A stretch of DNA of 64,000 nt from Myxococcota bacterium (GTDB lineage: Bacteria > Myxococcota_A > UBA9160 > SZUA-336), in the NCBI GenBank assembly GCA_965247115.1, contig CBDFGR010000003.1, positions 2,304,001 through 2,368,000 on the forward strand. The letters are read 5' to 3'. Position numbers and translations under genes: made by a program. Position 1 is the stretch's first letter. The number at the start of each line of letters is the position of its first letter. Positions 31,583 through 43,090 of this stretch are shown here, piece after piece. The notes under the pieces are model-generated. The model did not search any database and had not been told where the DNA came from. It saw only the letters and a program-made list of their open reading frames with translations.

Positions 31583-32707
31583 CTACGCGCCTCCGAGCAG
31601 CTTCTGCATCTTGGCTGCTGCGGCGCGGTTCTCATCCTCGAGCACGTGCCGATACGTGGCGAGCGTGAAGCTCGGCGAGTGGTGGCCGACGAGGGACGAG
31701 ACGACTTCCATCGCCACGCCAGCTCGTAGCAGCATGGTCACCGCGCTGTGGCGCAGGTCGTGGAATCGGATGGGCGGGAGCTCCGCGCGCTTGAGCATTG
31801 GGACGAACGTGTGTGCGTAGAAACCGTCGTGACGCACAGGCTCGCCGCTCGGCGTGGTGAACACGAGGTCATGCAGCGACCGGATGAGCTGGCAATCGCG
31901 GTGCTCACTCAAGGCCGCGACGACGAAATCTGGGAGAGGCACCGTACGGCGACTGCGCTTCGACTTGGGTGGTTCGAGGGAAGCCGCTAGATCGTTGGCG
32001 ACGCGCCATCGCTTGAAGTTCAACGTCTTCTCGATGCGCAGAGTTCCCTCCTCGAGATCGACGCATCGCCACGTGAGACCCCATATCTCGCCCGCGCGCA
32101 TTCCGCACGCGAGAGCGAGAAGGATCGCCGGGAAGTACCACTCTTCGCGCGTGGTCTCGATCAGGCGACGTGCCTCGTCCTCGTTGAGCGCTGGGCGTTC
32201 CGCGGGTGCGTACTCAGGTGTATCGACATGCCGAATCGGGTTGTGTGTGATCAGTTCGTCCTTCACAGCCTCATTCAGCGATGCGGAGAGTACTCGATAG
32301 ACCTTGAGCGCGTGCCGAGGGGTCTTTCCTCTTAGCACATGCTTGATGTGAGCTGGAGTGACTGCGTCCAAGCGCACATGACCGAGAACGGGATTGAGGT
32401 CGCGACGGACGAGGCGGGAGTACTCATCGTGTGTTCGCCACCGCCACTTCTCGCGCTTCTGTTCTAGCCACTCTTTGAGGTAATCGGCGACTGTAAGGCG
32501 ACCACTCGCAGGCAGTGCGCCGTGCTTTTGGATAGTTCCCCGCATCTCGTCGAGGCCCTCGAGCGCCTTGCCCTTGGTACGGGCATACTTCATCCGACGG
32601 ATCGGCTTGCCGTCTTCGGTGAGCCCGACCTGGAGTTGTGCGACCCATCGGCCGTCACACCGTTTGTAGATCGAGCCTTCGCTGTTCGCGCGTCGTCGGG
32701 GCATCAT
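31583..32707 (-). CDS. int: Tyrosine integrase
   Basis: N-terminal EGSIYKR arm-binding region, GMRAGE, PKS, HDLRH, VGH, TYRH. Confidence 0.95.
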   Translation of the reverse strand: MMPRRRANSEGSIYKRCDGRWVAQLQVGLTEDGKPIRRMKYARTKGKALEGLDEMRGTIQKHGALPASGRLTVADYLKEWLEQKREKWRWRTHDEYSRLVRRDLNPVLGHVRLDAVTPAHIKHVLRGKTPRHALKVYRVLSASLNEAVKDELITHNPIRHVDTPEYAPAERPALNEDEARRLIETTREEWYFPAILLALACGMRAGEIWGLTWRCVDLEEGTLRIEKTLNFKRWRVANDLAASLEPPKSKRSRRTVPLPDFVVAALSEHRDCQLIRSLHDLVFTTPSGEPVRHDGFYAHTFVPMLKRAELPPIRFHDLRHSAVTMLLRAGVAMEVVSSLVGHHSPSFTLATYRHVLEDENRAAAAKMQKLLGGA

Positions 32708-33786
32708 TCGCCTCCTAACTGCATTTTCGTCGCTCTACGAGCGGTCCGGCGTTTTCTTCCTTGCCACGAGAGCTTCATCCCAGTCACTCGCAGGTACGCT
32801 TGGCGGCAGTCGCGAGTGAAGAGTCGTACTTGCATGTATTGGTGTGCGCTGTGCTCTCGGTTCCACTTCCCCATTGCGTTTCCCCACGAGCGCCCGTCGT
32901 TGACCTCGTTGGCGAAGACCGCGAGCTCGGCGTGCTTCTCTGTGATGGCGCGTGTGGGAGGCAAGTCATAGAGGGATCTCATTTCGGAGTACAGCTTCGC
33001 GACCTGCTGGGGCTTCAAGGTCGGGCTCACCTCGAGGACGATTCGACTCGCCGCCGGAACGAGTCCCCACTCCAGCCTGGACTTGACGACAGGGAGGTGA
33101 GGTGGGGTTTCGTCCGTGAGAACGAACCAAGCACCGGTACTCTCGGACCATCCAAGCCAGCGCTCGAGATCCTTGGCCACAACCTTTAAGTGGCCGAGGG
33201 GACCATCGAAGCTAACTGCGACCTGCCCGATCTTTGGGAAGCCGAGGTAGTCGACTTCTTCTCTGACGGTGTAGCCAGGAGGAATCTGTGAGATCCGATC
33301 CCAGTCCTTCAGCAGGATCGGCCGACCCGCAGGTGCGCCGGAAGGCGTGCCTGCTTCCCGAAGAGGAGCGCGCACATACGTAGTTGCCGATCCCTGTATT
33401 TCGACCTGGTCAGTGACCCAGGCTAGCGCTTGGTCCGCGGTCAGAAGCTCGCCGGCGAGCACATCTTGTCGAAAGATCGCGACATTCCTCTGGCGCCTGG
33501 CAATCGCCGCGAGGATGCGAGTCGCTGCAGTTCCTCGGCGGTCGGGCGGAATCGCCCGCTCAATAACAACTGCGTTCTCCCGCATATCGCGGAGGAGGGC
33601 CTCCAGCTTCCGCGCCTCCTCGATCAGGTCGGCGATGGCGCGCTCCTCTGCCTCTGCGTCCGCACAGTCGAGGACGTCGCCTACCAACCGCTGCCTTACC
33701 AAGTGGTCCCAGAGGCTCGGGTGAATCGGGCGGCCGAGTTGTCGGATCACCTCTCCACGGACTTCCTGCTGAGAACTAAACATCAT
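32704..33786 (-). CDS. Hypothetical protein co-oriented with the integrase (possible regulator)
   Basis: 4-bp overlap with int; divergent from xis, in the position a repressor usually occupies. Confidence 0.65.
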   Translation of the reverse strand: MMFSSQQEVRGEVIRQLGRPIHPSLWDHLVRQRLVGDVLDCADAEAEERAIADLIEEARKLEALLRDMRENAVVIERAIPPDRRGTAATRILAAIARRQRNVAIFRQDVLAGELLTADQALAWVTDQVEIQGSATTYVRAPLREAGTPSGAPAGRPILLKDWDRISQIPPGYTVREEVDYLGFPKIGQVAVSFDGPLGHLKVVAKDLERWLGWSESTGAWFVLTDETPPHLPVVKSRLEWGLVPAASRIVLEVSPTLKPQQVAKLYSEMRSLYDLPPTRAITEKHAELAVFANEVNDGRSWGNAMGKWNREHSAHQYMQVRLFTRDCRQAYLRVTGMKLSWQGRKRRTARRATKMQLGGE

Positions 33787-33856
33787 CTAACAGAGTATCC
33801 ATCATGATCACTACTATTCAAGATGATTCACGGTTCATAGGAGCGGGGAGCAGCGG

Positions 33857-41574: not shown

Positions 41575-41578
41575 GTAG

Positions 41579-43090
41579 ATGCCACGGCAGTTCACGGTGC
41601 GAGCACGGATCGAGGCCCAGGACAAAGCGACGCCGGAGGTCAAGAAGGCAGAGAGGTCCTTCGCGGGCCTTCTCTCAACAATCAGCACGAAGACCGTGGC
41701 AGCGGTCGCCGCTGGAGTCGCTGCCTTCCGCCTGTTCACCAGTGCCATCGGCGCAGCGGTCAGAGCCGCGCAAGAGCAGCAGGACGCAGTAGCGAAGCTG
41801 AACGCCGCGCTGGATGCACTCGGCCCGAGTGCCGGAGCCGCGAGTAAGCAACTCCAGGATCAAGCGGCCGCCTTGCAGAAGGTGACGGCGGTCGGCGACG
41901 AGACGATTCTCGAGATGACCGCCCTCGCGCTGGGATTCACGCGGTCCGCGGACGCTGCCCAAAAGCTGGTGAGCGCAGCGCTCGACTTCTCCGCCGGTGC
42001 CGGGATCAGCTTCGAAGAGGCGACCCGGCGCCTCGGACGCTCGCTCAGTGGCTCCGTGGAAGACGTCGCGAAGTTCGCGACTGAGATCAAGGACCTTGAC
42101 GCCGCGGCCCTGGCGGCTGGCGGGGCCATAGAGCTGATCGGCGAACGCTTCGGCGGCGTCGCGCAGGCCCAAGCCCAGACGTTTTCGGGGAGAATCCAAT
42201 CGCTGAAAAACTCCTTCAGCGACTTCCTGGAGACCATCGGCGATGGGATCATCAAGAACGAGGAGTTTGGCGAGGCGCTGGAATCGCTGACGCGTCTGAT
42301 CTCAGACCCGAATCTCATCAACAGCGTGACGACGCTGACCACGCAGTTCGCAACGTTCACCGGCGCTGTTGCGGGCGCCATTGTCAAGCTTGCTGAGTGG
42401 GGGCACGCGGCATTCGAATTCCAGACGGCGAGTGACATTTTCATCGCAGGTCTCGATGGTACGAGGGAGTCCTTCGACAAGCTCCAGAACGCCACCACCA
42501 ACGCCGCCACGGTCACGGACGATCTCACGGAGGCACAGAAGCGGAACCGCGAAGAGAGCGAGCGTGGCAATAAGCAGCGGCAGACCGATCTCGAGGAGGC
42601 TCGCAAGCTGGCGGAGCAACTCGGCGTCACGTTGGAGCGGGACCTGGTGGAAGCCGAGAAGAAGGAGGCCGCGGCTCTAGGTCGTCTGCACGAGCTCTAT
42701 CTCAGGGGCGTGATCACTGCCAAGGATCTAACGGCTGCGAAGGCGACACAAGCTGAGGCTGCCAGGGAGCTTGCGCCTGCGATTGAATTCGAGGCGGCGG
42801 CGATGGCGAGCGCGAACTCGTCCGCCAACTCACTTCTCAGCACGCAGCGACAGCTGACAGCGGAGACTCGGCGGGCCGGCGAGGCGGCTGTGCTGACATC
42901 CCGTCAATTCGATGCGCTCGCCGAGAGTTCCGGCCGAGCGGCTGCTGTCGGGGCTGCTGTCGCCGGAGGCGGCATCATCTCGAACGCTGGCTCGAACGGT
43001 CGGGGTGGGCGGGTGCGACTTCCAGGAGGCGGCTCCAGGCTGATCGATCCAGGGCTCGGTGGCGGTCGGTCGATCGGCCGGGGGCTGTAG
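41579..43090 (+). CDS. Short tape-measure-like protein (503 aa)
   Basis: RIEAQDKAT start, LQDQAAALQKVT.VGDE, AQAQAQTFSGRIQSLKNSFSDF.E.IG; Ala-rich helical sequence with a Gly-rich tail. Confidence 0.78.
   Translation: MPRQFTVRARIEAQDKATPEVKKAERSFAGLLSTISTKTVAAVAAGVAAFRLFTSAIGAAVRAAQEQQDAVAKLNAALDALGPSAGAASKQLQDQAAALQKVTAVGDETILEMTALALGFTRSADAAQKLVSAALDFSAGAGISFEEATRRLGRSLSGSVEDVAKFATEIKDLDAAALAAGGAIELIGERFGGVAQAQAQTFSGRIQSLKNSFSDFLETIGDGIIKNEEFGEALESLTRLISDPNLINSVTTLTTQFATFTGAVAGAIVKLAEWGHAAFEFQTASDIFIAGLDGTRESFDKLQNATTNAATVTDDLTEAQKRNREESERGNKQRQTDLEEARKLAEQLGVTLERDLVEAEKKEAAALGRLHELYLRGVITAKDLTAAKATQAEAARELAPAIEFEAAAMASANSSANSLLSTQRQLTAETRRAGEAAVLTSRQFDALAESSGRAAAVGAAVAGGGIISNAGSNGRGGRVRLPGGGSRLIDPGLGGGRSIGRGL

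Follow-up and report, generated by a model that had tools for sequence, protein, structure and literature searches.

A terminase, a tail completion protein and a tape measure protein on a capsid-less, satellite-like element of a Myxococcota genome

This work deals with an element, here called copy A, in a 64,000-nucleotide stretch of DNA (the window) on contig C3 of the genome of a Myxococcota bacterium (G000, 5.17 Mb, 98% complete). Copy A carries an intact, selected and capsid-less gene set on a satellite backbone resembling that of PICIs (phage-inducible chromosomal islands), i.e. a gp10-type tail completion protein (TCP), an HNH nuclease, the small and large terminase subunits (TerS and TerL) and a tape measure protein (TMP). 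It is compared throughout with a second element of the same genome, copy B (G000:C3:652791-673000). Judging from gene content and from relatives in phages and other genomes, we think that copy A is probably a phage satellite that packages its own DNA, supplies the inner core of the tail and takes the outer shells from a helper siphophage. An earlier, sequence-only reading had proposed a satellite with its own HNH, TerS and TerL plus gp10 and a TMP and no head genes, and this core of it is supported here.

Packaging and tail genes of copy A

The element was scanned against Pfam (31 open reading frames, ORFs) and PHROGs (30 ORFs), both within 26148-52515 (Table 1). As the sequence-only reading had it, no portal, protease, capsid, tube or lysis family was matched in this region. 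The genes it had named (int, two xis, primase-helicase, gp10, HNH, terS, terL and a 503-aa gene) are open and lie where they had been placed, and their families were confirmed, with weak matches in the case of the TMP. Their order also stands, except that gp10 is separated from HNH by a 217-aa gene on the minus strand, which was overlooked in that reading and which truncates a first HNH copy. For terL a GTG start at 39991, giving 527 aa, is the more likely one, and the protein retains motifs that we take to be the Walker A/B and nuclease-type motifs. The gap in front of terS, which had been called cos-type, is present and by eye resembles the gaps of related phages, even though its matrix score is weak. 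The six-sequence, phage-only matrix, whose anchors were picked by eye from an alignment that included satellites, placed the site before terS among the top 2 at 4 of the 8 scanned loci (L225, L196, L227 and L226).

On the evidence of its homologues, the 503-aa protein is a full-length TMP of a short-tailed family and is not shortened. Library matches are weak (PF06791, E 8e-4, below the cut-off; phrog_28, E 1.6e-5), and a protein search returned six external relatives of 403-576 aa with E <1e-32. The context of these homologues is more telling. In a prophage of G033 the order is terminase, portal, protease, capsid, adaptor, gp10, two small genes, a 365-aa gene and the TMP homologue, followed by genes for 261 and 1139 aa that we read as Dit and hub from their position only. 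The 365-aa gene is Phage_tube_2-like (PF18906, E 2.5e-4, below the cut-off; Atlas 0.97, 28/30 hits). A tube-profile match lies upstream in 9 of the 10 public TMP homologues that score above 200 bits and have enough upstream DNA, 8 of these 9 tubes having helped to build the profile. The family thus has the two features expected of a siphophage TMP, a gene between tube and Dit in phages and a long helical product; the structure model of the window protein is mainly helical, at low confidence (pLDDT 43). Complete TMPs of the family in full phages with the tube-TMP arrangement measure 479-593 aa, and both termini of the window protein are conserved with phage TMPs. The proposal that a short TMP gives a short, satellite-specific tail was therefore rejected: a protein of the length usual in its family need not alter that of the tail. 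A TMP rises 0.145-0.15 nm per residue, and the predicted tail of 73-75 nm is arithmetic on this value only. In the TMP tree (24 of 42 rows; a quick 42-row tree agrees) the two G000 proteins group with the phage rows L040 and L047 (100/99), and the protein of G196, described below, stands apart; a single origin of the satellite TMPs of G000 and G196 is neither shown nor rejected (AU test, p 0.052).

The only PDB sequence match of gp10 is 9mu2_P (E 0.002), which is also its top Foldseek match (prob 0.94, TM 0.50, E 0.065; model pLDDT 57). This chain is the tail completion protein of the 80alpha/SaPI1 neck, equivalent to HK97 gp10; in the structure as described there, it closes off the end of the DNA, three TMP N-termini join it in a sheet, and its contacts to the outer neck proteins are few (PMC11661146). 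The SPP1 equivalent is described as routing DNA into the cell (PMC11099176). In copy A, gp10 is placed upstream of HNH and not where phages have it, and there is no Dit or hub; a single deletion therefore does not explain the gene order. In copy B (L026:8911-10998) an N-terminal HNH stub precedes gp10, which is followed by a DUF3102 gene and two intact tandem HNH genes; this arrangement suggests that gp10 was inserted at the start of an HNH gene with duplication.

Copy B, selection and relatives of the backbone

Copy B has a different integrase (31% identity) and a different replicase, a PrimPol with a separate helicase. The genes for gp10, HNH, terS, terL, TMP and a 320-aa protein follow in the same order in both copies, with identities of 81% (gp10), 62% (HNH), 31% (terS), 66% (terL) and 87% (TMP). 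Ratios of nonsynonymous to synonymous change (dN/dS) between the copies, estimated by Nei-Gojobori with 95% intervals from a codon bootstrap, are 0.109 (0.078-0.146) for TMP at a dS of 0.71, 0.177 (0.10-0.32) for gp10 at 0.65, 0.295 (0.23-0.37) for terL at 1.03 and 0.30 (0.14-0.53) for HNH at 1.14; the value for terS is 0.72, these two genes being too diverged to judge. The sequence-only reading had held that independent, divergent elements of the same synteny with dN/dS <1 would speak for a real family, and copy B, at 0.11-0.30, is a divergent copy with this synteny.

The junction itself shows the same signature. The last 60 terL codons have a dS of 0.57 and a dN/dS of 0.10, the first 60 TMP codons a dS of 1.46 and a dN/dS of 0.06, and the short spacer aligns between the copies around the ribosome site. 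No stop or frameshift was found in gp10, HNH, terS, terL or TMP of either copy, and the dN/dS intervals given above lie below 1; neither the broken morphogenesis genes nor the relaxed selection of a defective prophage were seen. The two TerL proteins form a clade (100/99 among 13 rows), and so do the two TMPs. Since dS is high and dN/dS low on both sides, selection most simply acted after the junction had formed, and the simplest reading is a single junction event followed by long divergence under selection. By this comparison the junction is not a recent one-off deletion. It is not an assembly artefact either, as far as one sample's contigs allow: the terL-TMP junction of copy A is spanned by a 677-bp contig with 0 differences in 3 of 4 public runs, and that of copy B by contigs in 4 of 4. 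All four runs stem from one sample, probably the source sample of the genome, so they speak against misassembly and not for independent occurrence.

Related capsid-less elements exist in other genomes, which is in line with a check proposed in the sequence-only reading. In the class, of which 225 genomes were scanned, the TMP profile matches in 8 and PF05119 in 8. The cleanest test case of the family is a 12.3-kb element of G196 (L195:12514 to L196:8831, G196:C172), bounded by a tRNA-Thr repeat, with the order xis, second tyrosine recombinase, RepO-like gene, terS, TMP (544 aa), a small ribbon-helix-helix (RHH)-like gene and integrase; terS is directly followed by TMP, and no terL, portal or capsid was matched in the element. 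In G217, where the integrase is of the G196 type, the order is xis, primase, HNH, terS, RHH-like gene and integrase, terS being followed directly by the RHH-like gene. In G084 a 404-aa TMP-family protein that has both termini in common with the window TMP (L261:8389-9603, G084:C147) directly follows xis, accompanied by a capsid gene, RHH and the same integrase type; the contig ends in the integrase, and no terminase or portal was seen in this element. G199 has terS and capsid, and in G033, G197 and G120 the TMP homologues stand in phage-like contexts. The gene orders show that the class-wide relatives have a common backbone and differing virion genes (terS and TMP, none, TMP and capsid, or capsid). 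The RHH-like gene was tried as a family marker and rejected as too common: its family occurs in 96 of the 225 genomes, and most of 27 further loci viewed are not satellites, which makes it a weak link when taken alone.

These data also bear on a rival explanation, by which copy A is a decayed prophage, a cos-type siphophage that lost its portal-to-tube block and tail tip; the selection signal would then go back to when it was still a full phage, or to related phages that underwent two similar deletions. The closest external homologues of terL and TMP do stand in ordinary phages, similar heads and tails are combined in phages such as L121 and L022, and copy A lies in a composite island with remnants and no pair of attachment (att) sites. 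We nevertheless consider this explanation unlikely: both copies have one junction flanked by selected sequence, the five morphogenesis genes are unbroken, the left arm is like that of a satellite and has no phage early region, gp10 is out of place, and 12-kb elements with other virion genes are built on the backbone as well.

Extent, arms and neighbouring genes

Copies A and B resemble each other from 29624 to a point past 49720, which makes the element larger than the 31583..43090 given to it in the sequence-only reading. The left marker is the 3' core of a tRNA-Pro(CGG), identical at 48 of 49 nt to the intact tRNA-Pro elsewhere on C3 and at 54 of 55 nt to copy B.

Table 1. Features of copy A and its arms (window coordinates)
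Feature	Position	Strand	Basis or remark
3' core of tRNA-Pro(CGG), attP-like	29624..29672	+	left marker common to both copies, no right repeat
Panacea/SocA-type antitoxin (30020-30583) and 91-aa neighbour, cargo	29731..30583	-	PF13274, E 1e-10; pairing putative
Remnant of copy-B-type (tRNA-Pro-associated) integrase	31156..31530	-	80% nt identity to 3' part of copy B int
Tyrosine integrase, 374 aa, intact	31583..32707	-	PF00589, phrog_1; 31% to copy B int
360-aa protein at repressor position	32704..33786	-	no Pfam, PHROG or PADLOC match
Two excisionase-like HTH_17 genes, 69 and 89 aa (starts 33857, 34053)	33857..34322	+	PF12728, phrog_66; divergent from int
Small overlapping ORFs, 115, 81 and about 84-94 aa	34319..35199	+	no family match above cut-off
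RepB-type primase fused to D5/SF3 helicase, 790 aa	35236..37608	+	PF16793 (RepB_primase), PF08706 (D5_N), phrog_1156
HK97-gp10 family TCP, 114 aa	37895..38239	+	PF04883, phrog_5
Truncated first HNH copy, N-terminal stub	38236..38376	+	matches N-terminus of copy B's intact first HNH
217-aa inserted gene, hydrophobic N-terminus	38330..38983	-	ORF list and gene caller; no Pfam, PHROG or PADLOC match; single copy in genome
Terminase-associated HNH nuclease, 119 aa	39085..39444	+	PF01844, phrog_144
Intergenic gap, candidate cos/packaging site	39444..39560	+	by eye like gaps before terS in related phages
Small terminase (terS), 149 aa	39561..40010	+	PF05119, E 1e-30, phrog_83; 31% to copy B terS
Large terminase (terL), about 527 aa	39991..41574	+	PF03354 and PF20441, phrog_9; longest ORF from 39961
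Full-length TMP, 503 aa, directly behind terL	41579..43090	+	homologues behind Phage_tube_2-like gene in phages
320-aa Cys-rich protein	43129..44091	-	convergent with TMP, conserved in both copies
70-aa Arc/RHH-like gene and 283-aa gene, right arm	44335..45426	+	
N-terminal stub of G196/G217-type integrase	47960..48050	+	translation matches start of G196, G217 and another C3 integrase
Second tyrosine integrase, 416 aa, right end	48470..49720	+	PF00589

In the left arm, the integrase remnant is read in two frames by tblastn. The 360-aa protein has only hypothetical proteins as close Atlas neighbours (0.97; named ones <0.9), and at the same position copy B has a dissimilar 318-aa protein with a C-terminal helix-turn-helix. 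Homologues of the 115-aa and 94-aa ORFs are present in copy B, and the primase-helicase is 40% identical to that of the G217 element and 37% to that of an element in G002. On the right, the only homologue found for the 320-aa Cys-rich protein is that of copy B (dS 0.61, dN/dS 0.415), and the 70-aa RHH-like protein is 42-44% identical to equally placed ones in G196 and G217, the latter matching the Arc-like phrog_3431. The ORFs of 360, 115, 94, 217, 320 and 283 aa are without annotation in the Pfam and PHROGs scans, and PADLOC matched none of 16 cargo proteins.

The surroundings contain several further features. A tRNA-Ser(CGA) lies at 25734-25823, with several 3' copies elsewhere (C3:2401165-2401238, 2406540, 2408090 and 688631), and the copy B region likewise ends in such a 3' copy, flanked by the same arm. 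Next to the tRNA-Ser, two overlapping low-GC genes on the minus strand (26845-29224; about 330-378 and 421-436 aa) have no Pfam, PHROG or PADLOC match and are a possible defence pair. Further to the right are a peptidase-like/TPR/VWA gene (49837-52582), with three near-identical copies in the genome, an Rhs-type gene fragment (54254-57916), also with three copies, and a tail-tip fragment of the lambda-like prophage kind (61484-64000).

Known satellites, possible helpers and the remaining explanations

It is instructive to compare copy A with known satellites, which, as far as the sources cited here describe them, either redirect the helper terminase via TerS or encode a TerL along with a portal and capsid of their own. 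Firstly, in the SatelliteFinder definition as outlined in PMC10085698, PICIs have an integrase, divergent xis-type genes, a primase-replicase, terS and cargo, all of which copy A has as well; they are typically without other structural genes, the model forbids tail genes, and terL is specific to the capsid-forming PICIs (cf-PICIs). As candidates for an alpA/merR/stl-type regulator copy A shows only the HTH_17 xis-like genes and the unannotated 360-aa gene; no capsid morphogenesis gene was matched in the element, and TMP and TCP are tail genes when their Pfam, PHROGs and PDB matches are held against the published definition. Secondly, cf-PICIs resemble copy A in int, regulator region, primase, HNH, terS and terL, but they are defined there by their own capsid, portal, protease and head-tail adaptor/connector (PMC10085698), none of which was recognised in copy A. 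Some cf-PICIs carry putative tmp genes (legend to Extended Data Fig. 10 of PMC12987554). Thirdly, the PICI-like elements (PLEs) of Vibrio cholerae are capsid-less satellites whose own TMP replaces that of the helper in the tail; as described, their tmp is accompanied by a chaperone gene (in PLE11 by a hub gene too) and their helper is a myophage, and the main text of PMC12987554 does not contain the word 'terminase'. Copy A, in contrast, has tyrosine integrases, its own HNH, TerS and TerL, a TCP and a siphophage-type TMP flanked by terL and the convergent 320-aa gene, with no chaperone or hub recognised. Finally, the EPIPs of Mycolicibacterium are helper-dependent satellites of about 11 kb with terS and TMP; in the account of PMC12822802, whose text is inconsistent on a capsid gene, they have a serine integrase, a head-tail adaptor, a stopper and a scaffold but no large terminase, whereas copy A has tyrosine integrases and terL and gave no adaptor or stopper match. 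MulchRoom and MiniFlayer are described with terL plus portal and capsid, AH14b is described without a terminase, and for VEIME only small terminases are mentioned in the source.

Copy A thus fails tested defining features of PICIs, cf-PICIs, PLEs and EPIPs, and by analogy it would work like a PICI in its backbone and like a PLE in its use of the tail. The sequence-only reading had taken cf-PICIs to be free of tail genes. Satellite-encoded TMPs are already published for PLEs, EPIPs and some cf-PICIs. A satellite with terL, TCP and TMP and without portal or capsid was not found in the literature searched, mostly open-access main texts.

If copy A is a satellite of this kind, infection by a helper would lead it to excise and to replicate with its own primase-helicase. 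HNH, TerS and TerL would then cleave at the gap in front of terS and pump the element's DNA through an HK97-type portal into proheads of the helper. By analogy with the PLE proteins, the element's TMP would template a tail from the tube, Dit and hub proteins of the helper, and its TCP would bind the TMP N-termini and cap the DNA end inside the neck, following the 80alpha/SaPI1 structure (PDB 9MU2), where the TCP likewise bridges the DNA end and three TMP N-termini. By these steps DNA end, TCP and TMP would all be satellite-derived. In 80alpha/SaPI1, in contrast, all neck proteins come from the helper and packaging is by headful (PMC11661146), whereas copy A, judged by its genes alone, encodes TCP, TMP and terminase itself. 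A fitting helper would be a phage like L121, with its HK97-type portal (34% identity over 677 aa to the portal of L022, which follows a terL 71% identical over 90 C-terminal residues), gp10 (43% over 65 aa), tube and family TMP (31% over 557 aa).

Several observations weigh against this reading. Beyond the second copy in the same genome, the search for terL followed by TMP without a portal gave nothing: the two genes are adjacent in none of 38 terL loci outside G000 (22 of these have an HK97-type portal match, 4 of which had gone into the profile, 2 are of insufficient length, and an apparent protease-capsid fusion is seen in most others), and a terminase lies just upstream in none of 103 other TMP loci with enough upstream DNA. 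No third terL-TMP element was found in viral contigs, in GenBank phages, or in the 225 class and 401 phylum genomes, where the context check covered matches with E up to 1e-4; there was none among the metagenome-contig matches listed, and none in genome contigs in a search with terL only. Two copies with one junction mean one origin. Terminases usually need a cognate portal, and G000 has no cognate helper: it contains neither a PF04860 portal nor a tube or an additional TMP of the family. The three prophage regions of lambda-like type in this genome (G000:C3:770000-810000, which looks complete, 2578000-2613500, and one near 1036000, the latter two with a stop in the portal gene) have PF05136 portals, and the own terL of L121 lies outside the L121 DNA examined. 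No tail assembly chaperone was recognised in the element, the nearest phages likewise showing the tube gene directly followed by TMP. The candidate cos gap comes only 6th within the window and is not among the top 15 of the genome, and the matrix did not pick the site before terS in copy B or L224. As to mobility, copy A sits within a composite island of about 71 kb, from the tRNA-Ser at 25734 to a tRNA-Ser 3' copy outside the window, and carries integrase and HNH remnants; the right integrase of copy B is frameshifted (a two-piece tblastn match). No repeated att core flanks either copy, the tRNA-Pro core being on the left side only, whereas the G196 relative is bounded by its repeat. The sequence-only reading had suggested looking for circular forms, and no circular joint of the element ends was seen in the contigs of the sample, which rare forms could escape. 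Because no att pair flanks them, the G000 copies may now be grounded, i.e. immobile.

Some of these points would suit an element that interferes with phages, its TMP, TCP or TerL acting as non-cognate decoys that spoil the tails or motor of an invader, while it moves with helper parts or not at all. Purifying selection fits any function, there is no own portal and no resident cognate helper, and G217, which lacks terL and TMP, and G196, which lacks terL, tell us that the backbone can exist without them; systems that interfere with tail assembly are described as well (PMC11364771, PMC10884400). We find this improbable, however, given a TerL that keeps its ATPase and nuclease motifs and is accompanied by TerS, HNH and a cos-like gap, and a full-length TMP conserved at both termini; the published satellite TMPs are reported as built into particles (PMC12987554).

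G000 also has a tRNA-Arg island (L028:4000-19100; C3:939043-954133) with int, primase, a 235-aa gene, a TerL of a different family and a capsid gene, in which no portal was seen; the only PF05065 match of G000 lies outside the element. In G104 (L263) terL and capsid are similarly arranged, and G117 (L262) has this type of TerL but no capsid gene with it. That copy A takes its capsid from this island and its portal and tail from the apparently complete lambda-like prophage near C3:770-810 kb is very improbable, since the prophage portals are of the PF05136 type and the prophage TMPs do not match the family profile, the window-type terL is followed by an HK97-type portal in 22 of 38 public loci, and the island has its own, different TerL. 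A further observation is a viral contig (L005:6144-12926) in which a 2260-aa ORF directly follows an HK97-type terL, with no portal-profile match in the first part of the ORF.

Returning to copy A as a self-packaging satellite, we speculate that its genes amount to a 'lumen replacement': the element would encode the whole DNA-touching axis and steal only the symmetric shells, i.e. portal, capsid, tube and tip. HNH, TerS and TerL would make and pump the DNA end, the TCP would cap it, and the TMP would template the tail and guide ejection. Copy A would then belong to a class-wide, PICI-like family whose members capture different virion genes, and its TerL would have to work on a foreign portal. 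This extension is tentative, and we regard it as possible rather than probable. If it is true, a satellite with TerL but without a portal makes terminase-portal specificity directly testable. The presence of TCP and TMP together fits their recently solved contact and suggests that exchanging the TMP without a change in length is a means of controlling the core used in DNA ejection. Satellite models in which tail genes are forbidden would reject elements of this kind, which would then be filed as dead prophages, a label against which the two copies in G000 provide a test of selection.

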